Source: a virus. From it: a stretch of DNA of 64,000 nucleotides. Where the stretch lies: positions 32,001 through 96,000 of the IMG/VR virus record IMGVR_UViG_3300037247_001890. One strand, given 5' to 3'. Under the pieces are notes generated by a model. That model saw nothing but the letters and a program-made list of their open reading frames with translations, did not search any database and was not told the DNA's origin. Shown one piece after another: positions 8,058-24,489 of this stretch; the stretch's first letter is position 1, and every line of letters starts with the position of its first letter. Both the position numbers and the translations under genes were made by a program.

Positions 8058-8134
8058 CCGCCCGTATCTCCTCCGTCTGATAAGCGGTAGAAAGAGTAGT
8101 CGGTTACAGATTGGTTCAATTCCAATAGGGCGGA
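8058..8134 (+). tRNA. atypical tRNA-Ile(GAT)-like RNA with displaced D-arm
   Basis: Acceptor CCGCCC/GGGCGG; anticodon arm CCGT-CTGATAA-GCGG; T-arm ATTGG-TTCAATT-CCAAT; no D-arm before the anticodon arm. Confidence 0.7.
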
Positions 8135-8135
8135 C

Positions 8136-8357
8136 ATGAAAGCAAAATTTATACAAGAAAACGTAATATTGAGTGAACATGAGGGCCCTTATGGATTGGA
8201 TCCTCACGATGACTGGACGGACACAGTAATAGAAGAATATCGTAAAAAATATTCAAATGGAAGAATATTTACTTCTACCAAAGAAAGCAGAATTCGCAAG
8301 GTGGGTGATTGGGCTCAATATTATTATATAATAGGCAAGGCAAAAGATGCGAGTTAA
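8136..8357 (+). CDS. small hypothetical protein abutting tRNA 3' end
   Basis: Starts MKAKFI. Confidence 0.6.
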   Translation: MKAKFIQENVILSEHEGPYGLDPHDDWTDTVIEEYRKKYSNGRIFTSTKESRIRKVGDWAQYYYIIGKAKDAS

Positions 8358-8574
8358 AATTACTAATTTTACGACATTGATGCAAAATGACAAGACATAT
8401 AATATTCAACAAAGATATTTCTTTAAGGCAACTTTAAGGTATGATGGCGGTTATGTTTATCGTTGTAAAGACGGCCACAGGTTTTATTTGTTTGCCTTAG
8501 ATCAAGCAGATTTAATTCATATAGGAATTTTAGGAAAGTTATATGGTACGGAAGAAAACAAGGTGGCATTATGA
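8347..8574 (+). CDS. small hypothetical protein
   Basis: Overlapping ORF chain. Confidence 0.55.
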   Translation: MRVKITNFTTLMQNDKTYNIQQRYFFKATLRYDGGYVYRCKDGHRFYLFALDQADLIHIGILGKLYGTEENKVAL

Positions 8575-8807
8575 TAAAAATTTATAAAATATGGATGGAA
8601 GGATATGCAGCTACCGGTGAAAAGAGTACCGCACAGTATGTTGGATCTGTAAAAGCTAAATCCTTCAAAGAAGCTTGCATAAAATTTTCCAAAACAAAAG
8701 AGGGAATAGAGAAACAATGGGATGAATTTTTTGAACCACAAAATCTTTCGTTCTGGGGATGCAAACTATTTGATAACGAAATAGATGCTCGTAGAGCATT
8801 TGGATAA
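8571..8807 (+). CDS. small hypothetical phage protein
   Basis: ATGA overlap; WMEGYAATG...WGCKLFDNE. Confidence 0.65.
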   Translation: MIKIYKIWMEGYAATGEKSTAQYVGSVKAKSFKEACIKFSKTKEGIEKQWDEFFEPQNLSFWGCKLFDNEIDARRAFG

Positions 8808-8814
8808 TGTTTAA

Positions 8815-8888
8815 TGGCCCGTAGTTCAGCCTGGTAGAACGGCACACTCATAATGTGAGAATCGATGGTTCAAATCCATTCGGGCCAA
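8815..8888 (+). tRNA. tRNA with CAT anticodon (elongator Met or Ile2)
   Basis: Cloverleaf; loop CT-CAT-AA. Confidence 0.9.
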
Positions 8889-8890
8889 CT

Positions 8891-9118
8891 ATGAAAGTTA
8901 GAATATTACCATCGGTGTTAGGCACTACTTGGAGGGGCGATTTTGATTCGTTTGGACTTCCAAAACGAATACTCAACACATCAAACAAATACTGGAAACA
9001 TATAGGATTGTATGATTTAACCATAGAAAAACTTGCCGAATTGGCGAACAGCAGTGACAAGAAAAAAGGTTTCAAGACCTACAGAGATTTTAAACAATCT
9101 GGGTTTACTAAAAAATAA
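8891..9118 (+). CDS. small hypothetical protein abutting tRNA
   Basis: ATG 3 nt after the discriminator. Confidence 0.55.
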   Translation: MKVRILPSVLGTTWRGDFDSFGLPKRILNTSNKYWKHIGLYDLTIEKLAELANSSDKKKGFKTYRDFKQSGFTKK

Positions 9119-9458
9119 ATCAATATTGGATTATGGCTGTGGAAAATCCATAGACTATATTCACATAGCAGATATGGATCGATTTGATCCTTATTTCTAT
9201 CCGGAAATAAAAAATAAAAAATATGAAGTTATTCTTTGTCATTATGTTATAAATGTAGTTAGCAAAGAAGAACAAAAACAAATAATAGAACATATTAAGA
9301 GCCTTCTGGCACCAGGAGGAAAAGCTTACTTCACAGTAAGGAGAGACATAAAAGAAGACATCCATTATAAAGACTATTCTCAAAGAGTTGTATATCTACC
9401 TTTTAAAACAATAAAAAAACACGCGGACTTTGAAATTTATGAATGGAGTGAGAGATGA
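9033..9458 (+). CDS. class I SAM-dependent methyltransferase
   Basis: ILDYGCG motif I; LCHYVINVV; LAPGG; start uncertain. Confidence 0.8.
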   Translation: MPNWRTAVTRKKVSRPTEILNNLGLLKNKSILDYGCGKSIDYIHIADMDRFDPYFYPEIKNKKYEVILCHYVINVVSKEEQKQIIEHIKSLLAPGGKAYFTVRRDIKEDIHYKDYSQRVVYLPFKTIKKHADFEIYEWSER

Positions 9459-9643
9459 ACAAAATTAAAGAACTTTGTATGAAGTTTAATAGGTTTTGGG
9501 ATGCTATTCCGGAACCTAAGCGTTTTATATATTTTGTAATAGCCGCTGCTTTTTGGTCCTGGGCACTATTATTAGAACCATTTGTGGCCATATTTATCGC
9601 AGCAATAGCATTATACATACGTTTCCAACGTTACGATACATAA
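9455..9643 (+). CDS. small membrane protein
   Basis: Two hydrophobic segments. Confidence 0.6.
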   Translation: MNKIKELCMKFNRFWDAIPEPKRFIYFVIAAAFWSWALLLEPFVAIFIAAIALYIRFQRYDT

Positions 9644-9652
9644 TGAATCAAC

Positions 9653-9728
9653 GGGGTATTAGAATAGTCCGGTTCAATTCGCCACCCTGTCAAGGTGGAA
9701 AACATGGGTTCAAATCCCGTATGCCCCG
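9653..9728 (+). tRNA. tRNA-Asp(GTC)
   Basis: Cloverleaf. Confidence 0.93.
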
Positions 9729-9730
9729 CT

Positions 9731-9946
9731 ATGAAAACAACATTTATAAAAGAAAACATTTTATGTACTCTAACAAGAGCAGAGATAGGATATCTAAATT
9801 ATCTTCTAAAAACCTATGACGAAACAGATCTTGAAAAAGGTGAGTATATTTTACAAGTAATGAAAGAAAATAATTATTTTTATAAAATTGATGGTATACA
9901 TTATCAAGTATTAAAAATCAAAGGAGACTTAGAAGAAAAATTATGA
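9731..9946 (+). CDS. small hypothetical protein abutting tRNA
   Basis: Starts MKTTFIKEN. Confidence 0.55.
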   Translation: MKTTFIKENILCTLTRAEIGYLNYLLKTYDETDLEKGEYILQVMKENNYFYKIDGIHYQVLKIKGDLEEKL

Positions 9947-10103
9947 AAGTAGTATGTATTGATGTTAGCATCGATTCAACAAATGATAGAAAAGAAACCT
10001 TGGACGAAATAAAACGCCGGCTCCAGGAATGCTTGAAAGACATGAAGGGGGCTAAATTAATTAAGAGATATAAAAATGTTTACATTAGTATGTGGGAATT
10101 AAT

Positions 10104-10304
10104 ATGAAACAAAAAAAAGCAAAAATAGTTTGTGGGAATGTATTAGCAGACATTTCAAAAGAAAAATTAGGAAAAATAATCGAGGAAGTAGTGCAAGAAG
10201 GTATGGATTCTTTAGACAAAACTTTAGAAAAATTTAATACCTTGGTATTTTTAGATTATGCCGGTAAACATGAATCTCGATATGTAGAAATTAGGAGGGT
10301 CTGA
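10104..10304 (+). CDS. small hypothetical protein (stop lies inside tRNA-Ser)
   Basis: ORF track; start reassigned. Confidence 0.5.
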   Translation: MKQKKAKIVCGNVLADISKEKLGKIIEEVVQEGMDSLDKTLEKFNTLVFLDYAGKHESRYVEIRRV

Positions 10305-10384
10305 CCTCATCGGCTGCGGGGCCTGGTCCTGAAAACCAGTGGCCGTCGCAAGGCGGTTTCAGAGTTCGAATCTCTGACCCTCTT
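10294..10384 (+). tRNA. tRNA-Ser(TGA), C33, atypical D-arm
   Basis: Long variable arm; loop CC-TGA-AA; T-arm CAGAG-TTCGAAT-CTCTG. Confidence 0.8.
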
Positions 10385-10386
10385 CA

Positions 10387-10566
10387 ATGAAAGTACAAAT
10401 AAAAACAACAATGTGGATTATCGAAAGAAATCCAAATATATCAAATGCAAGTTATGAGCTTCCAATAACATTAATTTTTAGAAGACATGAAAATCATTTA
10501 GGGTGGATCGACATAACCAATTTGATGGATGCAAAAGAAATATTTTTAACAGAAGGGCATAAATGA
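10387..10566 (+). CDS. small hypothetical protein abutting tRNA
   Basis: MKVQIKTT..., 59 aa, ATGA-coupled to the next gene. Confidence 0.5.
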   Translation: MKVQIKTTMWIIERNPNISNASYELPITLIFRRHENHLGWIDITNLMDAKEIFLTEGHK

Positions 10567-11087
10567 AAGCAACTGGATACCAGTTAAGAGAAGCACTACG
10601 CCACTGGCGTAGTGTATTAGAAGGTCTTGCTATTGACCTAAAAGGATCTTTATATTACTTTGATCAGAAAGAAAAAATTAATCCTTTAACAGTAGCAGAA
10701 GACTACAGGGCAGCAGAAGATGCTGTATCAAGGATTGAAGAAGCACAACAAAAATATAATCTGCGTATAAATTTAACAATCGCAGATGAACCACAAACTC
10801 TGACTTATGCAATCAAAGCATTAGGAATGGCCGGTCGCTATGCTGCGATTTGGAAAGCAGTGGCAAGTGATAAACAAAGTGCTCGCGGATGGGGCGGCGA
10901 TAGATTAGAACGTGTAAGAAATAAAGATGATGTTCATGCGAAAAGATCTATCAGTAAAGAAGCGGCATCAAAGATGCGTACTGCTGCAAACAAGCATGCA
11001 TCTGATTTGAGACAAGCAATTGCATTAGCCAATGCAAGTAAACTAGAAATAGACATTCCTGAAAACCTGATTAATTTCGGGCGATAG
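10563..11087 (+). CDS. helical coiled-coil protein (DIP1984-like resemblance)
   Basis: LREALRHW N-terminus; helical pattern ending IALANASKLEI; family assignment from memory only. Confidence 0.55.
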   Translation: MKATGYQLREALRHWRSVLEGLAIDLKGSLYYFDQKEKINPLTVAEDYRAAEDAVSRIEEAQQKYNLRINLTIADEPQTLTYAIKALGMAGRYAAIWKAVASDKQSARGWGGDRLERVRNKDDVHAKRSISKEAASKMRTAANKHASDLRQAIALANASKLEIDIPENLINFGR

Positions 11088-11096
11088 GGAATGCCG

Positions 11097-11259
11097 AAGA
11101 GGCGGTGACCGTATCTGTTTGGTATTACAACCTGGCAGGGGAACTATGAAGGCTGGAAATTGCTAGAAGCTTAAAGCCTATACCAATACTTACCATAGGC
11201 AAGTACTCAAATCCACTTCAAGTATAACCATAGCTATTAGCTGTATACTGCCTCTTTTT
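11097..11259 (+). ncRNA. orphan structured RNA downstream of the coiled-coil gene
   Basis: Closed by AAGAGGCGGT/ACTGCCTCTT plus T-run. Confidence 0.5.
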
Positions 11260-11264
11260 AACTT

Positions 11265-11472
11265 AATTAACGCCGGCATAAACGTAACTCCGTGGTGAAG
11301 CTTCCTGAGGCGGGGTGTAGTGAGCTCCTCCAAGATACCGTCGAGGGTCAAATCTGGGATCTACACAGTCCCCAGCTAAGTCCCCTAAAGAGGTTTGTAT
11401 TCTAGAGGTGAGAGCTGTCTGTGATGAATACAAGCGTGAAATATCGGAAAAAGGAATACTCCGGCGTTAATT
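11265..11472 (+). ncRNA. orphan structured RNA, about 200 nt
   Basis: Perfect 12-bp closing stem AATTAACGCCGG/CCGGCGTTAATT; GC-rich; non-coding. Confidence 0.6.
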
Positions 11473-11476
11473 TTAT

Positions 11477-11562
11477 GGGGATATGGTGAAATGGCAGACA
11501 CATGGGACTTAAGATCCCATGGGGGAGACCCCGTGAAGGTTCAAGTCCTTCTATCCCCACCA
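11477..11562 (+). tRNA. tRNA-Leu(TAA)
   Basis: Class II cloverleaf with encoded CCA. Confidence 0.95.
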
Positions 11563-11786
11563 TGAAAAGCGTAAAATTTGTAAAACAATCAGTTCTCGTA
11601 AAAAAGAACAAAATAGAAGATGCTATGAATACTATAGCCCATGCACTGAAAACCGATCCTAGCTATAGAATAGGATGGTATGCGAATTTAACATTTAATA
11701 TATATGATAACAGCAAAGGTAGAATAAGCCAAGATACAGCGGGTAACATAGCAGACGTAATATTAAGAAACTTTTTTAAAGCTTAG
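11562..11786 (+). CDS. small hypothetical protein
   Basis: ATG shares the A of the tRNA CCA; stop overlaps G1 of the next tRNA. Confidence 0.6.
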   Translation: MKSVKFVKQSVLVKKNKIEDAMNTIAHALKTDPSYRIGWYANLTFNIYDNSKGRISQDTAGNIADVILRNFFKA

Positions 11787-11870
11787 GGCAAGTGGCGAAA
11801 GTGGCAAACGCGTTGTCTTCAAAAGGCAATCCTACAAAATAGGGTGTAGGTTCAAGTCCTACCTTGCCTA
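11786..11870 (+). tRNA. tRNA-Leu(CAA)
   Basis: Class II cloverleaf. Confidence 0.92.
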
Positions 11871-11872
11871 CT

Positions 11873-12085
11873 ATGAAAAAAAGAACTGTCAACATGTCAG
11901 AAGAAGTTGTGTTTGACGACATAACAGAAAAAGTCGAGACAGAAAAAATAATTGGAGATCTCACAAAAAAGTGGAAAAATAAAGACTTTTCGATAAAAGT
12001 TTATTTTAATAAAAGAATTACTAAAATACAGAACGCGGCTAGTCAAGGTACAATAGACTTTATCAGAGCTTACAAACCAAAATAA
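11873..12085 (+). CDS. small hypothetical protein abutting tRNA
   Basis: Starts MKKRTVN. Confidence 0.55.
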   Translation: MKKRTVNMSEEVVFDDITEKVETEKIIGDLTKKWKNKDFSIKVYFNKRITKIQNAASQGTIDFIRAYKPK

Positions 12086-12086
12086 A

Positions 12087-12155
12087 CGGGCTGCTCAGGA
12101 CAAGCAAGGTTCGATTCCTTCTCCAAGACGTTGGAGCCTCGGTGGGGGCAGCCGG
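12087..12155 (+). ncRNA. minimal circularly permuted tRNA-like (YrlA-like) RNA
   Basis: Order: stem GGCTGCTC, T-arm AAGG-TTCGATT-CCTT, capped acceptor-like hairpin CTCCAA-GACG-TTGGAG, D-like loop, stem GGGCAGCC. Confidence 0.6.
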
Positions 12156-12158
12156 TAT

Positions 12159-12242
12159 GCGAGTGTGGCGAAGTTGGTAGACGCGCTAGATTTAGGATCT
12201 AGTGGGGGAAACCCCGGGAAGGTTCAAATCCTTTCACTCGTA
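12159..12242 (+). tRNA. tRNA-Leu(TAG)
   Basis: Class II cloverleaf. Confidence 0.95.
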
Positions 12243-12256
12243 CTATTAGGAGGATT

Positions 12257-12466
12257 ATGAAAGTAAAATTTACAAGCAACCCATACATTAAAGCATCTTG
12301 GCACGAAGCAACTGCCAAGTTAACAAAATTAACTAATGAATATTTGGATGAGGCAGGGAGTAGTGGTGATTTATTAAAAAAAGCAGAAGACGTTCTATAT
12401 AGACTAGGATGGACTTTAGAAGAATATCAAGAATTAAATAGACCGCCAACAAAGCGACATAAATAA
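12257..12466 (+). CDS. small hypothetical protein
   Basis: SD AGGAGG. Confidence 0.65.
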   Translation: MKVKFTSNPYIKASWHEATAKLTKLTNEYLDEAGSSGDLLKKAEDVLYRLGWTLEEYQELNRPPTKRHK

Positions 12467-12467
12467 T

Positions 12468-12540
12468 GGGCCTGTAGCTCAGACGGTAGAGCGATGGACT
12501 GAAAATCCATGCGCCGGTGATTCAACTTCACCTGGGCCCA
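12468..12540 (+). tRNA. tRNA-Phe(GAA)
   Basis: Cloverleaf. Confidence 0.92.
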
Positions 12541-12558
12541 CAAATCATAGGAGATATT

Positions 12559-12792
12559 ATGACAGTAAATTTTATTGAACATAACACATTAAATTGGATA
12601 TTAATCAGAGAAGAAAGAATAGCTAAAAAAAGTGGTAGTTTTAGTGGTACTACTTACACAGATCCGCACGTTATTCTTAAAAGATCAATAACTCTTGATG
12701 AGTCCACAACTGCTATGGATGGAGCCGAAACAAAGAGATATTCACCTGGAATATATCGAGCAACAAAAAAGGAAGGATGGCAGAGAGGCTAA
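12559..12792 (+). CDS. small hypothetical protein (stop inside tRNA-Ser)
   Basis: SD AGGAG; ATG 12559. Confidence 0.55.
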   Translation: MTVNFIEHNTLNWILIREERIAKKSGSFSGTTYTDPHVILKRSITLDESTTAMDGAETKRYSPGIYRATKKEGWQRG

Positions 12793-12854
12793 TTGCAACG
12801 GTTTGCTAAATCGTCGTCCTCCGGGACACGTGGGTTCGAATCCCACTCCTTCCT
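12771..12854 (+). tRNA. tRNA-Ser(GCT)
   Basis: Class II cloverleaf. Confidence 0.93.
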
Positions 12855-12878
12855 CACTAAAAATGGCATAAGATAAAT

Positions 12879-13073
12879 ATGATAACGTTAAAGGAATACT
12901 TTAAAGAATTAAAGATCATAGAAAAAAGTCTCAATAAATCAAAAGATCCGGCTAATACATATGCCTGGGTCTGTGCTTTGGAGTCAAAACTTCATTCACT
13001 TGACAGTTTTTTAGATAACCAAAAAAATATTTACTACAAAGCAATGGTAAGAAACAAATTAGATAAAACATAA
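12879..13073 (+). CDS. small hypothetical protein
   Basis: ORF track. Confidence 0.55.
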   Translation: MITLKEYFKELKIIEKSLNKSKDPANTYAWVCALESKLHSLDSFLDNQKNIYYKAMVRNKLDKT

Positions 13074-13418
13074 TCTTCGATTCGTGGCTCATAGTTTCTG
13101 TGGTAGTAATTAGATACGATCCATAAATTAACTACACTCGGGAGCGTCCAGTTCTATGGTGAAAACCCCATAACCAATGAATAGCTGTGGGTCATTGAAA
13201 CGAGAATGCGGGTGGAGAATCGGGAGTCCCGCCAGAACATGAGAGGAAACTCAGGACATCACTGCTAACGGTGGGAGAATTAAGTGTTGCAGCACTTAAA
13301 TCCAATACCACTTAGGATGCGACTCAAAATAGCTTAGAGGGAAAGCAGCTCTATAATAGCAAGGTAGAGGCCAATAGACAGATCACGAAATAATACAGAA
13401 TCCTGGTTATAAGAAGAT
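13073..13418 (+). ncRNA. rnpB: RNase P RNA, reduced S-domain and enlarged P3
   Basis: CR-I GAGGAAACTCAGGAC (13243-13257); CR-V ACAGAATCCTGGTTAT; P1 ATCTTC/GAAGAT; P2 TTCGTGG/TCACGAA; GGATGCGACTCAAAATA. Confidence 0.85.
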
Positions 13419-13427
13419 AAACGCGCG

Positions 13428-13531
13428 ACACGTCGTTCAGGGGACTAGGCATGTGTTGTTGGGCAGGCCATATGTTTGAATTTTCCGGATAGACCAACAG
13501 CCGGAAAAAGAGAGACTGTCCCCCGACGTGT
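13428..13531 (+). ncRNA. orphan multibranch RNA
   Basis: ACACGTCG/CGACGTGT and GGGGGAC/GTCCCCC stems enclosing two hairpins. Confidence 0.55.
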
Positions 13532-13542
13532 ACTTAAAAATA

Positions 13543-13571
13543 TTGACAAACAGCAGTAGATGTTGTAAATT
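13543..13571 (+). promoter_or_regulatory. sigma70-like promoter TTGACA-17-TAAATT
   Basis: Consensus -35. Confidence 0.7.
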
Positions 13572-13596
13572 ACATAATATTTTAGGAGGTATTGAA

Positions 13597-14222: not shown

Positions 14223-14295
14223 CGCGGGGTGGTAGCAGTGGTAGCTCGCCTGGCTCATAACCAGGAGGTCGCCGGTTCAAATCCGGCCCCCGCTA
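14223..14295 (+). tRNA. initiator-type tRNA-Met(CAT)
   Basis: C1:T72 mismatch; CGCGGGG 5' end. Confidence 0.92.
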
Positions 14296-14304
14296 CAATT
14301 ATAT

Positions 14305-14376
14305 CGCGCGGTAGGGCAGTGGTAGCCCGGGAGACTCATAACCTCCAGGTCGCCGGTTCAAATCCGGCCCGCGCTA
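14305..14376 (+). tRNA. second initiator-type tRNA-Met(CAT)
   Basis: C1:T72 mismatch; paralogue of the preceding gene. Confidence 0.9.
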
Positions 14377-14472
14377 CTACATAGAAAGGAGGAGACAGGA
14401 CGCCTAGCGACCTGTGTAGTGCACCTCTTCCTTTCTTAGATTTCACATTTCACATTTAACCAATAAAAAATT

Positions 14473-14712
14473 ATGGGCTTTGCAACATGTGAATACACTG
14501 GAGACACCGCTACAAGTGGATCCGTAAGAATTCATATTCCAGAAACAATTAATGCAACTACAGAGTCAGACGATAGTACATGGCTTAAACCAAAAGGGGT
14601 ATTCGAAAGGGTCTGTAAAAAATGCGGATCACCTTTTGATTCACTAAAAAGAAAAGCACAGGTATGTCTAGAGTGCAAACAAGAGAAAAAGCAAGTAGCA
14701 ACGGGTCGGTAG
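14473..14712 (+). CDS. small Zn-finger protein (stop inside tRNA-His)
   Basis: CKKC...CLEC. Confidence 0.6.
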   Translation: MGFATCEYTGDTATSGSVRIHIPETINATTESDDSTWLKPKGVFERVCKKCGSPFDSLKRKAQVCLECKQEKKQVATGR

Positions 14713-14792: not shown

Positions 14793-15041
14793 ATGAAGAT
14801 CCATATTTCAAAAGGCACCGGCATTAATAGATTAAGTAGAAGAATTAAACTAAAACCGGATACAAAAGAAGTGATCAGAGGACAATTAAGAGAAAATAAG
14901 ATCTTAAGAATGGATATTCAAGAAAATGGTAAATATGCTGCCGATGCTAATGACTTCTACGCAGATGTATTTTTTATATTTAATTTTCCACAAAGAAAAA
15001 TTCATAAAGCGTTAAAAGATTTTATAGGTCCCTTCGTCTAG
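14793..15041 (+). CDS. small hypothetical protein (stop inside tRNA-Glu)
   Basis: SD GGAGGT. Confidence 0.6.
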   Translation: MKIHISKGTGINRLSRRIKLKPDTKEVIRGQLRENKILRMDIQENGKYAADANDFYADVFFIFNFPQRKIHKALKDFIGPFV

Positions 15042-15101
15042 CTTGGTTAGGACCCCGGCCCTTCAAGCCGATAACGGTGGGTTCGAATCCCCCAGGGATC
15101 A
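15027..15101 (+). tRNA. tRNA-Glu(TTC), C33
   Basis: Cloverleaf; loop CC-TTC-AA. Confidence 0.9.
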
Positions 15102-15103: not shown

Positions 15104-15289
15104 ATGAAAACACGTATAGTAAACAAGAATGCTTTAAGAGAAGAAGGCGATGATCACGCCTGGACAGATGATCATCCTATAGTCATAGGAAAAATAGGAA
15201 CGGGCGCTTATTTTCCAATTACTTCTGGATCAGCTTTTATTACGCTTGAAGTATATTTATTCTATAAGGATTTTAAAAATGCAAGCTAA
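15104..15289 (+). CDS. small hypothetical protein (HAWTDD motif)
   Basis: ATG 3 nt after the tRNA. Confidence 0.55.
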   Translation: MKTRIVNKNALREEGDDHAWTDDHPIVIGKIGTGAYFPITSGSAFITLEVYLFYKDFKNAS

Positions 15290-15497
15290 TATTTTTCCAG
15301 GCTCAATAATATCAACAACAATAATGTGGGTGAGTATTACTCAAGCTGAAACAAGATTTTGGCCAGAGCACAGAAAACGCATAGGAGATATTATAGTAAC
15401 ATTTTCTAAGGATCATGCCACGACTACTTATAATGCAGAGGTAATAATAACAGATGAAACATGTGAATATTATTCGGGCAGCCAGATTAGTCCTTAA
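15279..15497 (+). CDS. small hypothetical protein
   Basis: SD AAGGA; ATG 15279. Confidence 0.5.
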   Translation: MQANIFPGSIISTTIMWVSITQAETRFWPEHRKRIGDIIVTFSKDHATTTYNAEVIITDETCEYYSGSQISP

Positions 15498-15672
15498 AGG
15501 CGGCCTTGATGTAACGCCAGAAGAAGAATTATATGGCATAATGATAGGCAAAGGGCTATACTATGAAGAAACTTTTGATGAAGATGGTATAGGCCATGCC
15601 TGGACAGATGACATCTACTTAGTTGATGATGAATATGAACCAGACTTTAACGCGCCCATAGCCAAGTGGTAA
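15454..15672 (+). CDS. small acidic protein (HAWTDD motif; stop inside tRNA-Trp)
   Basis: ORF track. Confidence 0.55.
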   Translation: MKHVNIIRAARLVLKGGLDVTPEEELYGIMIGKGLYYEETFDEDGIGHAWTDDIYLVDDEYEPDFNAPIAKW

Positions 15673-16111: not shown

Positions 16112-16399
16112 ATGGAAGACGAATATTTATCAATAGAACAATGTGAGCATAATAGTTTATATAAAATAGATGGCCGCAATTTTTCCCTTGGGGTATACAA
16201 TAAAAGAGAACAAGGTTTTGTAGGAATTCGCTTAAAATTCACAACGGAATTTCTTGATCTTGAGTATCATTGGGATACAGGACCTCCTAATGGAACAGTG
16301 AAACCTATTGAACTTCTTGAAAAATGTCCTATGGATGCGAACGATGAGAGCAAGGAATTATTTAAGTGGTTAAAAGAAAGACGCGAATATTATTTATGA
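16112..16399 (+). CDS. hypothetical phage protein
   Basis: SD AAGGAG. Confidence 0.7.
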   Translation: MEDEYLSIEQCEHNSLYKIDGRNFSLGVYNKREQGFVGIRLKFTTEFLDLEYHWDTGPPNGTVKPIELLEKCPMDANDESKELFKWLKERREYYL

Positions 16400-16581
16400 A
16401 AGTTAAAATCGTAACAGGCACAAAAATAGACGAGATCAAACATGAGATTGGCGCAATCAAAAGGATGGATCAAGAAGGAATTATTTGGACACCCGCAGCA
16501 AGGATTCTGAGAAATTGGAAGCTTGCACAAGATATAAAATTCTCTTACTATAGGATATCAAAATGGAACAAGCCCCGTTAG
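16396..16581 (+). CDS. small hypothetical protein (stop inside tRNA-Arg)
   Basis: ATGA overlap; starts MKVKIV. Confidence 0.55.
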   Translation: MKVKIVTGTKIDEIKHEIGAIKRMDQEGIIWTPAARILRNWKLAQDIKFSYYRISKWNKPR

Positions 16582-17133: not shown

Positions 17134-17205
17134 ACCCCTATAGTCTAGCGATAAGGCGTCCGGCTTACATCCGGAAGATCGGTGGTTCGAATCCATCTGG
17201 GGGTA
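17134..17205 (+). tRNA. tRNA-Val(TAC)
   Basis: Cloverleaf. Confidence 0.88.
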
Positions 17206-17207: not shown

Positions 17208-17387
17208 ATGAAGACAAAGATAGTAGAAGCAGAAACTGTAGTTGTAGTAGAGTATCCATATGGTTTAAGAGAAAGAATCGCTATAGAAGATGTTATTTAC
17301 AAAAGATATTTTCAGGATTTTAGAAATAATCAAGAAATGACGCTGCTATATAAATTAGTAGGTTTTGAACAAAGAGAAGATTGGTAA
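17208..17387 (+). CDS. small hypothetical protein abutting tRNA
   Basis: MKTKIVE..., 59 aa. Confidence 0.5.
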   Translation: MKTKIVEAETVVVVEYPYGLRERIAIEDVIYKRYFQDFRNNQEMTLLYKLVGFEQREDW

Positions 17388-17805: not shown

Positions 17806-18081
17806 ATGCTAGATGGTAATTATTATTTTGAATGTATTTGTGGCTGTGATGAGCACACTATAAGATTTACACTAGATAAAGAAGAAAAAGAAATTTACAC
17901 TTCGATATTCTTGGCTAGCCATCGGAACTTTTTCATACGAATTTGGCTGGGAATCAAGTATATTTTCGGTGGAAAAAGTCGGTATGGGCAATTTGGTAAT
18001 TGGTCATTAAATGTGCATGATGCCAATAGATTGGAAGACATGTTAAATATGCTAAAGGAGTTTAAAGATGGGACCTCATAA
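17806..18081 (+). CDS. hypothetical phage protein
   Basis: FECICGCDEH; SD AAGGA. Confidence 0.65.
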   Translation: MLDGNYYFECICGCDEHTIRFTLDKEEKEIYTSIFLASHRNFFIRIWLGIKYIFGGKSRYGQFGNWSLNVHDANRLEDMLNMLKEFKDGTS

Positions 18082-19174
18082 AATATATGCAGAATATGCA
18101 GAAGGCGCTGCTTTAGATCAATTTTATGAAGCAATGAAACATGATACCGTTGTGCAAGGTGCTTTAATGCCTGACGCGCACAAAGGTTATTCATTGCCAA
18201 TAGGGGCTGTGATAGCAATGAAGGATGTTATATGGCCTGCCGCAGTAGGATACGATATTGGATGCGGTATGTGTGCTATGCCTACTTCATTTGAGAAAGC
18301 CCATGTGGAAGCACAAAAAGATCTTATTTTTGATAGGATATATGAACAAATTCCTGTTGGATTTAACTGGAACAAAAAGCGTGTTAATTTTCATGTGACA
18401 GGTGAACTAGAAAAAGAACCAATTACTCCCCATTTTAAAAAAATCTATAATGAAAGAGGAGTATTACAAATCGGTTCTCTTGGTGGAGGTAATCACTTCA
18501 TCGAAATAGGTTATGATGAAACAGATAAGGTCTGGATTATAATTCATTCCGGATCCAGAAATCTTGGACATAATATTGCCACTTATTACATGAAACTTGC
18601 ATCTGGTGATGGCAAAGCACGAGAAGGTTATTATGTATTGGATTTTCAAGGTATAGATGGCGCGAATTATGTGACAGATCTTAATTTTGCATTAGAATTT
18701 GCCTTGTTAAATCGTGGTGAAATAATAAAAAGAGTAGAAAAAATATTAAGTAAAGTTGCTAAAGGCCATGGTAACTGGGATGGGTTAATCAATCGCAATC
18801 ATAATCATGCTGAATTGAAAGATGGGCTATGGATACATCGCAAAGGTGCAACACATGCCGAAAAAGGTATGGAGGGAGTTATTCCTGGAAATATGCGTGA
18901 TGGTTCTTTTATTGTGAAAGGTAAAGGAGATCCTGAATCATTAAATTCCTCGGCACATGGTGCTGGTCGAGTATTAGGACGTCGTGCCGCTAAAGAAACC
19001 TTAAAGATGGAAGATTTTAAAAAATCCATGAAGGGAATTAAGGCAAAAGTAGGCACAGATACTATAGATGAATCTCCAGGTGCATATAAAAATATTTTTG
19101 ATGTGATGGAACAACAGAAAGATTTAGTCGAAGTCATGCATCATGTTAAACCTATTATTAATATAAAAGGATAA
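18068..19174 (+). CDS. rtcB: RtcB 3'-5' RNA ligase
   Basis: MPDAHKG, GYDIGCG, GSLGGGNHFIE, HSGSR, HN, HRKGAT, PGNM, SAHGAGR, DESP. Confidence 0.97.
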   Translation: MGPHKIYAEYAEGAALDQFYEAMKHDTVVQGALMPDAHKGYSLPIGAVIAMKDVIWPAAVGYDIGCGMCAMPTSFEKAHVEAQKDLIFDRIYEQIPVGFNWNKKRVNFHVTGELEKEPITPHFKKIYNERGVLQIGSLGGGNHFIEIGYDETDKVWIIIHSGSRNLGHNIATYYMKLASGDGKAREGYYVLDFQGIDGANYVTDLNFALEFALLNRGEIIKRVEKILSKVAKGHGNWDGLINRNHNHAELKDGLWIHRKGATHAEKGMEGVIPGNMRDGSFIVKGKGDPESLNSSAHGAGRVLGRRAAKETLKMEDFKKSMKGIKAKVGTDTIDESPGAYKNIFDVMEQQKDLVEVMHHVKPIINIKG

Positions 19175-19176
19175 TA

Positions 19177-19479: not shown

Positions 19480-20390
19480 TAGACAAAGAATTTAAAGTCT
19501 TAGACAAAGGATTTATACGTCTTGTGGACTATATGGGTTCTGACCAGGCTATAGTTCAAGCGGCCCGTGTTTCATATGGCAAGGGTACAAAAACGAAACG
19601 TGAAGACGAAGGACTTATTCGGTATCTCATGAGACATAGACACACGACACCCTTTGAGCAATGTGAACTAAAATTCCATGTTAAAGTACCCATGGATTGC
19701 TGGCGACAATGGATACGGCATCGCACAGCCAGTGTAAATGAATATTCTACTAGGTATTCAGAAGCTATTGACGACAAACAAGAAACCAGTGAATTTGACT
19801 GGCGCAAACAAGATACAACAAAAAATACACAGGGCAGTAGTGGCCTTTATCTTCCTGCTGAAGAAATAGGCGATGATGGACATCCCAGTGCAATTGGTAA
19901 GTGGCACACTATTCAGGAAAGAGCATTGCATAAAACAGCAGAAACAGTCTATAAAAATAGATTAAAAGCTGGTATCGCTCGCGAACAAGCACGTAAAGAT
20001 TTACCTTTGTCGACGTATACTATGGCCTACTGGAAAATTGATTTGCACAATCTGTTTCATTTCTTAGGATTGAGAATGGACAGTCATGCTCAATTAGAAA
20101 TTAGAAAATACGCCAATATCATTGGTTACGAGATTGTGGCAAAGATATTTCCTTTGGCATGGGGCGCATTTCTAGATTATCGATTGAATGCGATGACGTT
20201 GTCAGCAAGAGATATCCATATTATACAGCAAAAAATTATATATGGAGATAAATATCTAGAAAATTCAGATGATTATAATCCTTTTAATTGGTTGGAAAAG
20301 CGTGACGACGGAACATTAAAAGACAATCTCGAGCGGAAGGAATTCGAAGAAAAAGCAAAAGTGTTAGGAATAAAAGTTCCTTGGATATAA
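19476..20390 (+). CDS. thyX: FAD-dependent thymidylate synthase
   Basis: AARVSY; RHRTASVNEYSTRY; REQARKDLP; HAQLEIR. Confidence 0.97.
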   Translation: MIDKEFKVLDKGFIRLVDYMGSDQAIVQAARVSYGKGTKTKREDEGLIRYLMRHRHTTPFEQCELKFHVKVPMDCWRQWIRHRTASVNEYSTRYSEAIDDKQETSEFDWRKQDTTKNTQGSSGLYLPAEEIGDDGHPSAIGKWHTIQERALHKTAETVYKNRLKAGIAREQARKDLPLSTYTMAYWKIDLHNLFHFLGLRMDSHAQLEIRKYANIIGYEIVAKIFPLAWGAFLDYRLNAMTLSARDIHIIQQKIIYGDKYLENSDDYNPFNWLEKRDDGTLKDNLERKEFEEKAKVLGIKVPWI

Positions 20391-20394
20391 CTTC

Positions 20395-20468
20395 GGGTCC
20401 GTAGCTTAGCTGGTGAAGCATCCGCCTTTTAAGCGGAAGAGTGGCAGGTTCAAGTCCTCCCGGGCCTA
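20395..20468 (+). tRNA. tRNA-Lys(TTT)
   Basis: Cloverleaf. Confidence 0.92.
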
Positions 20469-20474
20469 CAAACA

Positions 20475-20580
20475 ATAGTGTGGTTGGTTGAGCATAAAAC
20501 TTGAGCCTGTAATCCCGAACGAAAATAGACGAGAATGATCAATCTAAAAGATGACATGCCTCTATTTTTGGCCACACTAT
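20475..20580 (+). ncRNA. orphan structured RNA
   Basis: Closing stem ATAGTGTGGTT/GGCCACACTAT. Confidence 0.5.
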
Positions 20581-20606
20581 AAATAATTAAATACAGGAGG
20601 TTTATA

Positions 20607-20849
20607 ATGGCAGCAGCAAAGAAATGCATTATAACTGGCAGAAACCGACTTACCGGTATTTTTTATATGTTGAATAAAAATACCAACACCATGAAAACAA
20701 TTTGGTGGACTTCTGGCAAGGAACCAAAAGTACGCAAAGAAACTGAACGTAAGATCTTTGGGTCTGGTTCGGAAGCAAAAACATTCCTAAGGTATTTAAG
20801 ACGCGAGCCAAGTGTTTTTGATATCAGATGGTTTTTGGAATACATTTAA
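20607..20849 (+). CDS. small hypothetical protein
   Basis: SD AGGAGGT. Confidence 0.65.
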   Translation: MAAAKKCIITGRNRLTGIFYMLNKNTNTMKTIWWTSGKEPKVRKETERKIFGSGSEAKTFLRYLRREPSVFDIRWFLEYI

Positions 20850-20865
20850 TAACCAATAGAAATAA

Positions 20866-21123
20866 ATGGCAGATAAACAAAAGATCTTTGACGATGTCAA
20901 AGAAGAAAGAAAATATCAAGACAAAAAATGGGGATTAGAATTCGACAAGAATAATACAGCGAATGATTGGTCCTCATATATCATGACATATTTGGCAAAT
21001 GCTATAGCAATGCCAACTGGTTCTGACGAATACAGGCGATTGATGATCAAAGTAGCAGCCTTATCGTTTGCAGCAATAGAACTGCATGATGATAAATTAA
21101 TGCCAAACCGACATTACGAATAA
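20866..21123 (+). CDS. MazG-like all-alpha small protein
   Basis: EERKYQDKKWG...LMIKVAAL...AAIE pattern. Confidence 0.55.
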   Translation: MADKQKIFDDVKEERKYQDKKWGLEFDKNNTANDWSSYIMTYLANAIAMPTGSDEYRRLMIKVAALSFAAIELHDDKLMPNRHYE

Positions 21124-21147
21124 AAAAAGGGACAGCGATGTCCCTAA

Positions 21148-21235
21148 GCTGGGTTCGCATAGTGGCCGATTGCACGGGGTTTGTAACCCTGAGAGTAGCA
21201 ATACTCCGCGTGAGTTCGAATCTCACACCCCAGCT
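21148..21235 (+). tRNA. tRNA-Thr(TGT) with long variable arm
   Basis: CGGGG-TTTGTAA-CCCTG; variable hairpin GAGTA-GCAA-TACTC; G1-C72 and C2-G71. Confidence 0.82.
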
Positions 21236-21237
21236 CT

Positions 21238-21519
21238 ATGAATATAAAAACAATAATAGGAAAGAAAGTTGTAGCAATAAAAGGTTACAACTCGAGATGG
21301 AACGATAAGAGAGTAAAGCACCATAATACAGAACCAGAATATATATTATTTGATGATGGAAAAACTTTTATAGAATTGGAAGAACAAGATCACTATTCAT
21401 ATCATGATTGTAGTCTTACCGCCAGAGAAATATTAATCCAAAAAGACAAAGACAAATGGGATTCTATAATGACGAGCAAAATGTATAGTGATGCAACACA
21501 TAATTTATCAATGTACTAA
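21238..21519 (+). CDS. hypothetical protein abutting tRNA
   Basis: ORF track. Confidence 0.6.
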   Translation: MNIKTIIGKKVVAIKGYNSRWNDKRVKHHNTEPEYILFDDGKTFIELEEQDHYSYHDCSLTAREILIQKDKDKWDSIMTSKMYSDATHNLSMY

Positions 21520-21527
21520 GGTAAAAA

Positions 21528-22229
21528 ATGTTTAATAAATATGAAAAAACATATAGAATACAGACTCCTAATTTGAAAATATCCGGAAAGATGAACATGT
21601 CTAAAAAAGATGTTCAACGGTTATTGACAGGGAAAGTTACTATTGAAGAAAAGATTGACGGAGCTAATGTAGCTATTATAGGCATGGCATCAAACGTATC
21701 TTATTTTCGTCCGCCACGGCCATTTAGATTACAAAAGCGTGGATCATTGATTGATTTTTCTGAACATGAACAATATAATCGATTTAAGGCATGGTCAATG
21801 AAACAATGGAATAATTTGTCTAAGATAGAATACGGAATTTATGTATATGGTGAATTTATGTGGGCTACCCATCATATCTTTTATGATAATTTAACTGATT
21901 GGTTTGTATGTTTTGATATATGGGATGGTCGGAAATTTTACGACAGGCGAGAAAAAGAAAAATATTGTAATGATTTAAACTTCCAAATAATTCCATTGGT
22001 ATATGAAGGTTATATTGACGATATTATACACTTAGAAAGTTTTGTGCATGGCAAATCAGAATATAGTACAGATCATGATCGGGAAGGTATTGTAGTAAAA
22101 AATTACAGAAAACAAATGCGAGGAAAAATAGTAGTACCAGAATTTGTTAAAGAATTAAATGAAGATGGCACTCATTGGATGACTCGCTGGGATCCACGAA
22201 AAGTAAATAAATTAAAAAAGGAAATCTGA
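21528..22229 (+). CDS. ATP-dependent RNA ligase family protein
   Basis: Motif I EEKIDGAN; YGEF; FDIW; EGIVVK; K-motif RGKIV. Confidence 0.85.
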   Translation: MFNKYEKTYRIQTPNLKISGKMNMSKKDVQRLLTGKVTIEEKIDGANVAIIGMASNVSYFRPPRPFRLQKRGSLIDFSEHEQYNRFKAWSMKQWNNLSKIEYGIYVYGEFMWATHHIFYDNLTDWFVCFDIWDGRKFYDRREKEKYCNDLNFQIIPLVYEGYIDDIIHLESFVHGKSEYSTDHDREGIVVKNYRKQMRGKIVVPEFVKELNEDGTHWMTRWDPRKVNKLKKEI

Positions 22230-22468
22230 TGGTACAACAAAAGGTCTATCGGAATATAAAAATGAGAGAAAAAAATTTCTTTATTAAAGCATTGGATTGC
22301 CTATTTTATTCTTGGGGAGGAGACACTCCTTCAGAGGTATTTTGGGGATGCAATGATTTACTTGAGTGGTTCGAACAGGAATATAAAGTCAAATTAAATA
22401 TAAGATTTGATGAAGGAAATCCTAATAGTAATTATGATGATGTTATAAAAGCAATAAGGAATGCCTAA
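22229..22468 (+). CDS. hypothetical protein
   Basis: Coupled ORF. Confidence 0.55.
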   Translation: MVQQKVYRNIKMREKNFFIKALDCLFYSWGGDTPSEVFWGCNDLLEWFEQEYKVKLNIRFDEGNPNSNYDDVIKAIRNA

Positions 22469-22568
22469 TTATGAGAATGCTGTGGGTATGGATAAAAGTA
22501 TATTGTATACTTTTAATATTATTTCCCTATTTTTGGTTTAGAGGAATGATAGAAGTAAGGAAAAAGAA

Positions 22569-22642
22569 GCATCATTAGCTCATCGTGGTAGAGCGTCAGA
22601 CTTCCAATCTGAAGGTGGTCAGTTCAAGCCTGACATGGTGCT
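22569..22642 (+). tRNA. tRNA-Gly(TCC)
   Basis: Cloverleaf. Confidence 0.92.
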
Positions 22643-22656
22643 CATGAAAACATAAA

Positions 22657-22728
22657 GCGGGCATAATTCAGTGGTAGAATTTTTCGTTGCCAACGAAATC
22701 GCCGTGAGTTCGAATCTCACTGTCCGCT
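22657..22728 (+). tRNA. tRNA-Gly(GCC)
   Basis: Cloverleaf. Confidence 0.93.
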
Positions 22729-22751
22729 CTCATTAAAACAAAAGGAAAATA

Positions 22752-22955
22752 ATGAAAATAGAAGTTGATGAAAATAGGGACATTATATTGAAAGATGTTT
22801 TTAATGGTGTCGGATTTATATCTCCCGACGGCGAAAAATTTAATATATGCATGCGTGATGGCGGCTATGAATTTAGTTATCAAGGAACATGGTTTCGTGC
22901 AGTTGGTGGAATAATGGAAATAATAAATTTAAATCCTATAAAGGACAAAAAATGA
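22752..22955 (+). CDS. small hypothetical protein
   Basis: SD AAGGA. Confidence 0.6.
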   Translation: MKIEVDENRDIILKDVFNGVGFISPDGEKFNICMRDGGYEFSYQGTWFRAVGGIMEIINLNPIKDKK

Positions 22956-23392
22956 TATTTTGGATAGCACTAATTTTATTACTTTGGATTATCTCCATAG
23001 TATTTAATGACATAGAAGACTCGCTGGCGCATCATTATAAAAGCACAGTCTTTGACTGGCTGCCGAAGCATACATGGCTATCCTGGTATATGAAGGATCC
23101 GGATACGACTTGGAAAAGAAAGTATATTTGGTTGCCGGCCGGCCGTGATGGTGAAACAAAAGCAGGCAGGAAAAAATTTCTTGGCATAATAATACCAGCA
23201 TTTTTCTTTGATGGTTGGCATGGAGCAAAAATTATAAGACAATTTTTCCAGTATTTAACAATTTACGTGGGCATAAATAGCGGAATAGCAATTCCATTTA
23301 TATTAGGCTTGTTACTATTTATGATCAGTAACCAAATCACTCATTCCCACTTGTTTTATGGTGGAATGTTTCTAAAAAAATGGTGGGAATAA
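22952..23392 (+). CDS. membrane protein
   Basis: TM segments; FFDGWHGAK. Confidence 0.65.
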   Translation: MIFWIALILLLWIISIVFNDIEDSLAHHYKSTVFDWLPKHTWLSWYMKDPDTTWKRKYIWLPAGRDGETKAGRKKFLGIIIPAFFFDGWHGAKIIRQFFQYLTIYVGINSGIAIPFILGLLLFMISNQITHSHLFYGGMFLKKWWE

Positions 23393-23420
23393 TTCCCACT
23401 TTACAGAGAACGGAGGAATA

Positions 23421-23645
23421 ATGGGCAACAGATATTTTTTAACGATCAAATGTCCTAGTTGTGGTTATTTCGACGAGGATGTTTATTATGCTCCCACTTG
23501 TGGTTTTGTAGATTGGAGATGTCCTAAATGCGGTAAGGTTGTAGATTTAGAGGAAGAGACTGGTATTAGTTATGAGGACGCATCTAATCTTGGAGCCATT
23601 AAGAAGCTGTGTTCTAAGTTTGAAAAGAAAGGGGATAAGTCTTAA
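23421..23645 (+). CDS. Zn-ribbon protein (stop inside tRNA-Pro)
   Basis: CPSC...CPKC; SD GGAGG. Confidence 0.7.
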   Translation: MGNRYFLTIKCPSCGYFDEDVYYAPTCGFVDWRCPKCGKVVDLEEETGISYEDASNLGAIKKLCSKFEKKGDKS

Positions 23646-23702
23646 CGGTGAGACGGGTGCTTTGGGAGCATCAGGCGGTCGGTTCGATCCCGGCATCCCC
23701 TA
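23630..23702 (+). tRNA. tRNA-Pro(TGG)
   Basis: Cloverleaf. Confidence 0.9.
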
Positions 23703-23703
23703 C

Positions 23704-24008
23704 AAAAATCGATGGGCTTTCCTCGGAAACACAATGCGTAGTATTGTGGTCAAAACCTGGAATATTATGTAGTGCGATTTGAAGCAGTCCGGAGCGCGTA
23801 TCAAACAGTAAATAGTCGGACCTTGGGACAGCAGTCCGGTAAGGATGTCTTGAATCTCGAACCCCTGCTGTGGTAGCTTTTGTAAATCTTAATGGAGCCT
23901 ACGTGAACGTTTGTAACGTAACCCGTCGTCGACAGTCCCATACGTGGGGCGACTGGCACGCCGTAAGTTCATTTATCCAGTAACGTGAATAATCCCCCAT
24001 CGATTTTT
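23704..24008 (+). ncRNA. orphan structured RNA, about 300 nt, between tRNA-Pro and tRNA-Cys
   Basis: Perfect 13-bp closing stem AAAAATCGATGGG/CCCATCGATTTTT; GC-rich; internal hairpins. Confidence 0.7.
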
Positions 24009-24012
24009 TAAT

Positions 24013-24083
24013 GATTCCGTGGCCGAGTGGCTAGGCGAGAGACTGCAAATCTTTTTACGTCAGTTCAAATCTGACCGGAATCT
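24013..24083 (+). tRNA. tRNA-Cys(GCA)
   Basis: Cloverleaf; U73. Confidence 0.92.
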
Positions 24084-24099
24084 CTATGAGAAGGAAAAA

Positions 24100-24489
24100 A
24101 TGAAAGAAAAAAGATTTCACATTTTACAAGCAAATAGCCTCAATAAAGAAGATATTATTGTGGGAGGTCTTTACAGATATGATCAAATTGCAACTGTAAG
24201 AAAAAATAAAACCTATGAAGGACAAAAAACATTAAGAGTACAAACTTTAGCGGGTGCACGTTATATGAGACTTACCTATTTTCAAGATAGAAACTTCTAT
24301 ATAAGAATAGAAAGAGAATTGCATCTTTTAGATGGACTACCTATTTCGGGACAAGTAGATTCAAAGTTATATAGAAAAACAGTTGATATAGAAGCATCTC
24401 AAAAGTTTTTAGGATATCTAGATTCTTTGCCAGAAGAAGTGGTAAAACCAAAAACACCTATAGAGCAACTACAAGAGCAAATGTATTGA
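24100..24489 (+). CDS. hypothetical protein
   Basis: Start reassigned to the ATG after the tRNA; SD AAGGA. Confidence 0.6.
   Translation: MKEKRFHILQANSLNKEDIIVGGLYRYDQIATVRKNKTYEGQKTLRVQTLAGARYMRLTYFQDRNFYIRIERELHLLDGLPISGQVDSKLYRKTVDIEASQKFLGYLDSLPEEVVKPKTPIEQLQEQMY

Follow-up and report, generated by a model that had tools for sequence, protein, structure and literature searches.

A cluster of transfer RNA (tRNA) genes in a 64,000-nucleotide (nt) stretch of viral DNA, hereafter called the window, contains small open reading frames (ORFs) whose ATG start codons lie flush against the 3' ends of tRNAs. The window comprises bases 32001-96000 of the 169,274-bp IMG/VR record IMGVR_UViG_3300037247_001890, which is estimated to be 85% complete. 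The excess of these junctions is far beyond chance. The comparative evidence that tRNA punctuation may be combined with leaderless initiation in phages is strong, and this proposal is considered partly supported. The reading favoured here, with moderate confidence, is that host 3' processing of tRNAs without an encoded CCA would release messenger RNAs (mRNAs) that carry a 5'-monophosphate and a leader of 0-2 nt.

Junction geometry

Feature coordinates are given as window positions, and positions within tRNAs are numbered relative to the discriminator base (N73). Twenty-seven tRNAs, every one of them on the + strand, were identified between 5723 and 25038 using ARAGORN, and the same program found no further tRNA in the rest of the 169,274-bp record. 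The Rfam tRNA model stops at N73, which is one base short of the end assigned by ARAGORN. A total of 28 tRNA ends were counted, consisting of the 27 ARAGORN tRNAs and a tRNA-like element at 8058-8134.

The first-pass annotation of the window had listed 11 ATGs directly behind tRNA 3' ends, and each coordinate proved to be right. Nine of the ATGs are located at tRNA position 76 (N73-C-N-ATG) and two at position 75 (N73-C-ATG), the spacer between N73 and the ATG being CT in seven cases, CA in one, CC in one, and C alone in two. Nine of the 11 open ORFs of 59-93 amino acids (aa), and 9 of the 28 tRNA ends, or about one tRNA in three, are thus flush with a real ORF.

All of the features described in this section are on the + strand. 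The 73-aa ORF at 8136-8357 has its ATG at position 75 (A-C-ATG) and is the first of three overlapping ORFs that reach tRNA-Met. The element upstream of it (8058-8134) occupies the slot of tRNA-Ile(GAT) but is degenerate, with a 7-bp acceptor stem and a T hairpin in the predicted fold and a rearranged middle. The flush geometry that had been described for 8136 was found, whereas the upstream element, which had been taken for a tRNA, was called by neither ARAGORN nor Rfam. At position 76 are the ATGs of the 75-aa ORF at 8891-9118, which follows tRNA-Met(CAT) (8815-8888; N73 = A at 8888, then C-T); the 71-aa ORF at 9731-9946, which follows tRNA-Asp(GTC) (9653-9728; N73 = G, then C-T); and the 59-aa ORF at 10387-10566, which follows tRNA-Ser(TGA) (10294-10384; N73 = T, then C-A) and has a stop codon overlapping the ATG of the next ORF (10563). 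The same position is used by the 74-aa ORF at 11562-11786 after tRNA-Leu(TAA) (11477-11559; N73 = A), where an encoded CCA shares its A with the ATG (CCATG) and the G of the TAG stop is base 1 of tRNA-Leu(CAA). It is also used by the 70-aa ORF at 11873-12085 after tRNA-Leu(CAA) (11786-11870; N73 = A, then C-T), the 61-aa ORF at 15104-15289 after tRNA-Glu(TTC) (15027-15101; N73 = A, then C-T), the 59-aa ORF at 17208-17387 after tRNA-Val(TAC) (17134-17205; N73 = A, then C-T), and the 93-aa ORF at 21238-21519 after tRNA-Thr(TGT) (21148-21235; N73 = T, then C-T). The Met, Asp, Ser(TGA), Leu(TAA), Leu(CAA), Glu, Val, and Thr tRNAs were called by both ARAGORN and Rfam.

The two mini-ORFs that had been noted earlier, of 3 and 5 codons, are also present. 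MKT* (ATG-AAA-ACA-TAA, 22644-22655) begins at position 75 of tRNA-Gly(TCC) and lies in the 13-nt spacer that separates two tRNA-Gly genes. MRRKK* (24086-24103) begins at position 76 of tRNA-Cys and overlaps both the Shine-Dalgarno (SD) sequence (GAGAAGGA) and the ATG of a 129-aa ORF at 24100-24489.

Three calculations were used to compare the junctions with chance. TG follows A76 in 9 of 22 tRNAs, against a conditional probability P(TG|A) of 0.069 (binomial p = 7.6e-6). An ATG occurs at position 75 or 76 in 11 of the 28 ends (p = 4e-8), and an ORF of at least 59 aa is opened by 9 of the 11 junction ATGs, compared with 17.5% of the + strand ATGs of the region (p = 6e-6).

Conservation of the flush ORFs

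Two syntenic relatives of the window were available, one as L003 and L008 (IMG/VR records; RtcB 79% identical) and the other as L009-L011 (ENA and Logan metagenome contigs), and the additional metagenome fragments L012 and L013 were also compared. The order of the tRNAs and the junctions are shared with the relatives, with eight flush ORFs in L003/L008, plus one at 4 nt, and eight in L009. Orthologs located in L003 with tblastn align from residue 1 at 38-55% identity, and synonymous third-position changes start at codons 2-6 in the codon alignments. The ratio of nonsynonymous to synonymous substitution rates (dN/dS) relative to L009 was 0.17 for the ORF after tRNA-Ile, 0.29 for that after tRNA-Leu(TAA), 0.23 for that after tRNA-Leu(CAA), and 0.27 for that after tRNA-Glu. 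Judged from these alignments, the flush ORFs are real genes that start at the junction ATG.

Individual junctions were followed across the relatives. The L009 ortholog of ORF 8136 begins CATG after a canonical tRNA-Ile; in alignments with L008 and L009, the counterpart of the degenerate element at 8058-8134 is a canonical tRNA-Ile(GAT), and the window contains no other tRNA-Ile(GAT). Orthologs of ORF 8891 begin CTATG after tRNA-Met in both L008 and L009, the L009 orthologs of ORFs 9731 and 15104 are flush on tRNA-Asp and tRNA-Glu, respectively, and orthologs of ORF 11873 are flush in L003 (CAATG), L009, and L012. Eight homologs of ORF 11562 were found in the protein collection. tRNA-Ser(TGA) is followed by flush ORFs in L003, L009, and L012, which share just short parts with ORF 10387, and tblastn found no ortholog of ORF 21238 in L003. 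Comparison of the flush ORFs with Pfam and PHROG gave no Pfam match and one marginal PHROG match of unknown function.

The possibility that the flush ORFs are paralogues of one another was rejected, as an all-against-all BLASTP comparison gave nothing significant. The sole clear pair consists of the tandem ORFs at 24486-24713 and 24719-24952 (about 75 aa, 48% identical, E = 8e-23), which lie just before tRNA-Tyr; neither is flush.

Both mini-ORFs look like remnants when set beside the relatives. The two tRNA-Gly genes are 1 nt apart in L003, in contrast to the 13-nt spacer of the window, and ATGAAAACA, found in the Gly mini-ORF, likewise opens the Asp and Glu ORFs; the mini-ORF at 22644 is probably what is left of a lost flush ORF. 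Behind tRNA-Cys of L003, the orthologous ORF starts 4 nt after N73 and is in one frame throughout, whereas in the window the old start is out of frame and overlaps the SD sequence of the new start at 24100.

Spacing and junction turnover

The first-pass annotation had stated that the junctions leave no room for an SD sequence. This was borne out by the 21 bases upstream of the flush ATGs in three genomes, where an SD-like motif occurs in 1 of 25 junctions; these bases are the G+C-rich 3' strand of the acceptor stem. Of the 11 ORFs behind tRNAs in the window that are not flush, 7 carry a recognisable SD sequence of the AGGAG type 14-43 nt downstream. The distance between N73 and the ATG is bimodal in the three genomes, being either 1-2 nt (once 4 nt) or 13-47 nt, and no distance of 5-12 nt was found. 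As spacers of 24-47 nt without an SD sequence persist, compaction alone does not explain this gap.

The same junctions differ in detail between relatives. At tRNA-Leu(TAA) the junction reads CCATG in the window, CTATG in L003 and L013, and CATG in L009. The ORFs after tRNA-Leu(TAG) and tRNA-His are preceded by SD sequences in the window and L009 but are flush (CTATG) in L003, the sequence behind tRNA-Leu(TAG) being C-T-A-T-TAGGAGGATTAT-G in the window versus C-T-A-T-G in L003. tRNA-Glu of L003 is flush with a different ORF, homologous to 15246-15497 of the window, and ORFs identical in their first 9 codons abut tRNA-Val in the window (17208) and tRNA-Arg(ACG) in L009. These swaps and the varied junction letters indicate that the junction has repeatedly been kept, lost, and rebuilt.

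The N-termini of the flush proteins had been described as similar (MK[VTA]x[IF]). The likeness is present, but MK-type N-termini are generic: ORFs of the island that are led by SD sequences begin MKVKF, MKIHI, and MKIEV, about half of the called genes of L009 begin ATGAAA, and the flush ORFs are not paralogues.

tRNA 3' ends and processing

C74 is encoded at all 28 tRNA ends, and the full CCA is encoded at only two, those of tRNA-Leu(TAA) and tRNA-Ala. Position 76 is A in 22 of the 28 ends. T or A occupies position 75 in 25 ends and C hardly ever does, and the trailers of the window read CTA or CAA. Because CCA is not encoded, the tRNAs need 3' trimming followed by CCA addition. The CCA-less tRNAs of phage T4 require RNase BN, a ribonuclease (RNase). 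No CCA-adding enzyme of the PF01743 family was found in the 85%-complete phage record, and Rfam detected no RNase P RNA; host enzymes would thus do most or all of the processing. The stretches at 11088-11476 (about 390 nt) and 13074-13527 (about 450 nt) of the island contain no convincing ORF. The second had no Rfam match even at E = 10, although a very divergent RNase P RNA could escape such a search.

In Streptomyces coelicolor, the cut in most CCA-encoding tRNAs falls between the two Cs (PMC4681348). Such a cut, separating positions 74 and 75, would explain an invariant C74 next to a free position 75. C74 could equally be retained for the contact that RNase P RNA makes with the 3'-CCA (PMC1874595). 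Among the matches listed from an IMG/VR scan described below, C74 is encoded in 77% of 363 tRNAs of unrelated phages, with CAA and CTA as the commonest trailers, and a C74 that is conserved although CCA is missing seems to characterise phage tRNA genes in general.

A scan for sigma-70 promoters gave 71 sites versus 72.6 expected, i.e. the chance level. Terminator-like sites numbered 28, against an expectation of 13.5, and most of them are on the - strand. Transcription starting at the ATG from a promoter within the tRNA was considered and rejected, given the chance-level scan and the fact that the upstream bases are G+C-rich acceptor strands. A 15-bp stem-loop followed by a T-rich run lies at 8016-8049, immediately upstream of the tRNA-Ile-like element, and may act within the island as a terminator or as a hairpin for stabilisation or processing.

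Proposed mechanism

Under the favoured reading, the island (about 5.7-25 kb, + strand) would be transcribed as long precursors in which tRNAs alternate with small ORFs. Each tRNA would be trimmed at its 3' end and then finished by a CCA-adding enzyme, and the trimming would involve an endonucleolytic cut, either of the RNase Z/BN type after N73 or between positions 74 and 75. A cut after N73 would generate a 5'-monophosphate RNA starting C-U-AUG or C-AUG, and a cut between 74 and 75 would generate an RNA starting U-AUG or AUG. Ribosomes would begin in the leaderless mode on these mRNAs, which would have leaders of 0-2 nt and no SD sequence. Expression of nine small genes, together with that of the overlapping genes coupled behind some of them, would have to await maturation of the upstream tRNA.

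A more far-reaching joint claim is that phage tRNA islands would be a bacterial equivalent of mitochondrial punctuation, that host RNase P together with a 3' endonuclease acting after C74 would dice the precursor into mature tRNAs and exact or near-exact 5'-AUG leaderless mRNAs, that small early proteins would be gated by tRNA maturation, that degenerate tRNAs would be kept purely as cleavage signals, and that ORFs ending in UA, such as 11562-11786, might undergo completion or other handling once cleavage has taken place. Taken as a whole, this claim is tentative and appears doubtful.

The first-pass annotation had also suggested that two initiator-type tRNAs may assist. A tandem pair of tRNA-Met(CAT) genes is located at 14223-14377 (+) and is kept in L003 and L009. 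Bacterial initiator tRNAs have a mismatch at 1:72 and a run of three G-C pairs at the base of the anticodon stem; the mismatch (C1:U72) is present in both members of the pair, whereas the three G-C pairs are present in neither. That the pair assists initiation is speculation.

If the favoured reading is true, a gene-expression route so far known only from organelles would operate in phage-infected bacteria, and the output of small phage proteins would be tied to the RNase P, RNase Z, and CCA-adding enzyme of the host. It would also provide a natural system for the study of leaderless initiation on 5'-monophosphate RNAs. Gene callers and curators tend to shift flush starts downstream or extend them into the tRNA, as in versions of 94-100 aa and in coding sequence (CDS) 181 of Streptomyces phage Wofford, so that small phage proteins beside tRNAs are systematically mis-annotated.

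Alternative explanations

tRNA punctuation, as proposed in the first-pass annotation, agrees with the conserved starts, the lack of SD sequences, and the bimodal spacing; a strict order in which processing precedes translation does not agree with the stop codons located inside the next tRNA. The following points weigh against the favoured reading. Eight + strand ORFs (10104-10304, 11562-11786, 12559-12792, 14473-14712, 14793-15041, 15454-15672, 16396-16581, and 23421-23645) have a stop codon partly or wholly in the next tRNA, with overlaps of 1-22 nt. RNase P cleavage would strip these eight stops, and some translation therefore probably takes place on uncleaved RNA. In the relative L009, about half of the called genes have no recognisable SD sequence, so that initiation independent of SD sequences exists even where no processing is involved. 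Over their first 36 nt, the flush ORFs are unstructured (mean -1.1 kcal/mol, compared with -3.3 kcal/mol in random windows; p = 0.002) and about 50% A, but the start regions of genes with SD sequences are equally unstructured and A-rich, and these traits therefore do not separate the models. ATG, which leaderless initiation favours, is used at all 25 flush starts, but this argument is weak by itself, ATG being the usual start anyway. CCA is an anti-determinant for canonical RNase Z, which makes the CCATG junction of tRNA-Leu(TAA) awkward for that enzyme, and a 5'-monophosphate end also signals decay. The dN/dS values relative to L009 of the ORFs after tRNA-Met (0.84) and tRNA-Asp (0.75) are near-neutral and show weak constraint on both. 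The junctions of the three genomes are not independent events, as the genomes are related. Finally, a search of sequencing runs found a marine-sediment metagenome DNA run, which may be the source, as the only run that contains the sequence in full, and no RNA run containing it.

The alternative that survives best, although it is rather unlikely, is SD-independent initiation at the flush ATGs of the unprocessed precursor, with the A-rich sequence downstream and S1 or standby binding as possible aids. The junction would then be a matter of tight packing, with C74 constrained and positions 75 and 76 as the first free places for a start codon, and tRNA maturation and translation would compete for each transcript and would not be coupled. 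The stops inside the next tRNA, which point to translation of uncleaved RNA, the SD-less half of the called L009 genes, and the resemblance of the flush start regions to those led by SD sequences all fit this explanation, as does the presence of A76 in 22 of the 28 trailers, which means that the ATG reuses an existing base. It is opposed by the folded, G+C-rich acceptor stem that begins 2-3 nt before the ATG, in a region of which about 15 nt must be single-stranded for the 30S subunit, and by the normally fast processing of tRNAs. Distances of 5-12 nt are missing while SD-less spacers of 24-47 nt persist, so that packing pressure is not general, and spacers, where present, usually hold a full SD sequence.

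It is decidedly improbable that C-(U/A)-A-U-G is primarily a signal for tRNA 3' processing, with an incidental ATG and with proteins that start downstream or matter little. The motif does occur without an ORF at tRNA-Gly(TCC) and tRNA-Cys of the window and at tRNA-Ile of L008, C74 and A76 are general in these trailers, and C74 is found in the 77% of phage tRNAs given above for the matches listed. The ORF-less cases, however, look like remnants (the spacer ATGAAAACATAA at tRNA-Gly and the frameshifted start at tRNA-Cys), the alignments with orthologs begin at residue 1 and contain synonymous changes as early as codon 2, four ORFs have dN/dS values of 0.17-0.29, and long ORFs are opened by 9 of the 11 ATGs.

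Still less probable is translational coupling, in which ribosomes that end an upstream ORF would traverse the tRNA by scanning and start again at the flush ATG. Several upstream ORFs stop at or inside the 5' part of the tRNA, as such coupling would predict, but 72-90 nt of stable tRNA structure separates stop from start, while coupling normally spans a few nucleotides, and five of the nine flush ORFs (8136, 8891, 9731, 11562, and 17208) have the upstream stop 7-390 nt before the tRNA. That the ORFs are not genuine, with ATGs that arose by chance or from base composition, is scarcely credible, since, short as the ORFs are (59-93 aa), with no Pfam or PHROG family and two near-neutral members, the binomial p values range from 1e-5 to 1e-8, conservation extends over three genomes and several metagenome contigs, and four of the ORFs are under purifying selection.

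Genomic context

The G+C content is 32-40% across the window (2-kb windows). Besides tRNAs and small ORFs, the tRNA island carries genes for RtcB (18068-19174), an Rnl-type RNA ligase (PF09414; 21528-22229), and a Ro60-like protein (25300-26682), and it thus doubles as an RNA-repair island. A ThyX gene is likewise present. In L009, a GIY-YIG/NUMOD3 homing-endonuclease gene (18302-18934) is located between the post-RtcB ORF and ThyX; it is missing from this place in the window.

Megablast comparison of the island with phage genomes gave just short matches to RtcB and matches of tRNA size. Almost no PHROG matches were obtained for the structural proteins, most of which fit no PHROG family, and the phage is therefore distant from cultured ones. 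Hydrogenedentota was considered as the host but is a weak lead: the phage ribonucleotide reductase is closest to those of metagenome-assembled genomes (MAGs) of this group, at 52-55% identity. In one Hydrogenedentota MAG, the G+C content around tRNA genes is 55%, compared with 32-40% in the window, and all 33 of 33 distinct tRNA genes encode CCA.

Comparison with other phages and known systems

IMG/VR was scanned with a pattern consisting of a T loop, 11 free bases, and then CTATGAAA, which was found in at least 119 stretches. Among the matches listed, 36 of the 59 seed junctions confirmed by ARAGORN open an ORF of at least 50 aa. For the 363 other tRNAs in the listed loci, an ATG was counted 20 times at position 75, 23 times at position 76, and about 8 times per position beyond, and a flush ORF of 50 aa or more follows only 10 of these tRNAs (2.8%). 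Two to four flush junctions each were found on the unrelated contigs L042, L083, L034, L076, and L021. The flush arrangement is sporadic across phages and unusually dense in this clade, with about one tRNA in three. A full-text literature search on phage tRNA punctuation and on leaderless mRNAs made by processing found no description; subscription literature lay outside this search.

The annotation of Streptomyces phage Wofford places gene 173 one base after the tRNA-Met feature and passes over a second flush ATG, behind tRNA-Phe, in favour of a downstream start. The junction is the same as in the window (N73-C-T-ATG), but 1-2 such junctions occur among the 8 tRNAs of the stretch examined, compared with 9 of 28 in the window. 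Leaderless mRNAs are common in Streptomyces, the genus of its host (PMC4681348). Phage T5 (NC_005859) likewise has small ORFs interspersed with tRNA genes on one strand, but its 13 tRNA-to-CDS spacers are all 13-34 nt long and none is flush; none of the nine flush ORFs of the window is preceded by a T5-type spacer, one of about 12 nt or more that includes an SD sequence. The tRNA genes of its host, Escherichia coli, encode CCA (PMC4681348).

Known leaderless mRNAs include those of lambda cI, Tn1721 tetR, and many actinobacterial and Deinococcus genes (PMC4633059, PMC4681348, PMC9031893). The flush ORFs resemble them in that the AUG lies at the predicted 5' end or no more than a few nucleotides from it, in having no SD sequence, and in the strict use of AUG as start. 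The known examples are started by promoters and carry a 5'-triphosphate, whereas the phage mRNAs would be made by cleavage and carry a 5'-monophosphate. The nearest cleavage-made case is that of the leaderless mRNAs generated by MazF (Vesper et al. 2011, cited in PMC4681348).

The element at 8058-8134 retains an acceptor stem and T arm, the parts recognised by RNase P and RNase Z, and still abuts an ATG, and in this it is like the t-elements of plant mitochondria, which are tRNA-like structures that mark mRNA ends. It differs from them in being a decayed copy of a tRNA-Ile that is intact in the relatives, and its cleavage is putative. Co-transcription of a tRNA with an mRNA is found in thrU-tufB of E. 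coli, where the ORF is led by an SD sequence.

tRNA punctuation of animal mitochondrial transcripts was reportedly described by Ojala, Montoya and Attardi in 1981. Several features differ between the two systems. The phage ORFs are flush at about a third of the tRNAs and the remaining ORFs have ordinary leaders with SD sequences, so that coding regions are not mostly delimited by tRNAs (9 of 28 ends flush). C74 is always kept between N73 and the ATG in the phage, and several of its stop codons lie well inside the next tRNA, which is not the case in mitochondria. The phage presumably relies on a bacterial host with 70S ribosomes and on the RNase P and RNase Z of that host, by which its transcripts would be processed. 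The likeness lies in tRNAs placed directly between coding regions on one strand, in starts 0-3 nt after the tRNA without a 5' untranslated region or SD sequence, and in the ORF at 11562-11786, which, as in animal mitochondria, ends with UA plus base 1 of the next tRNA.

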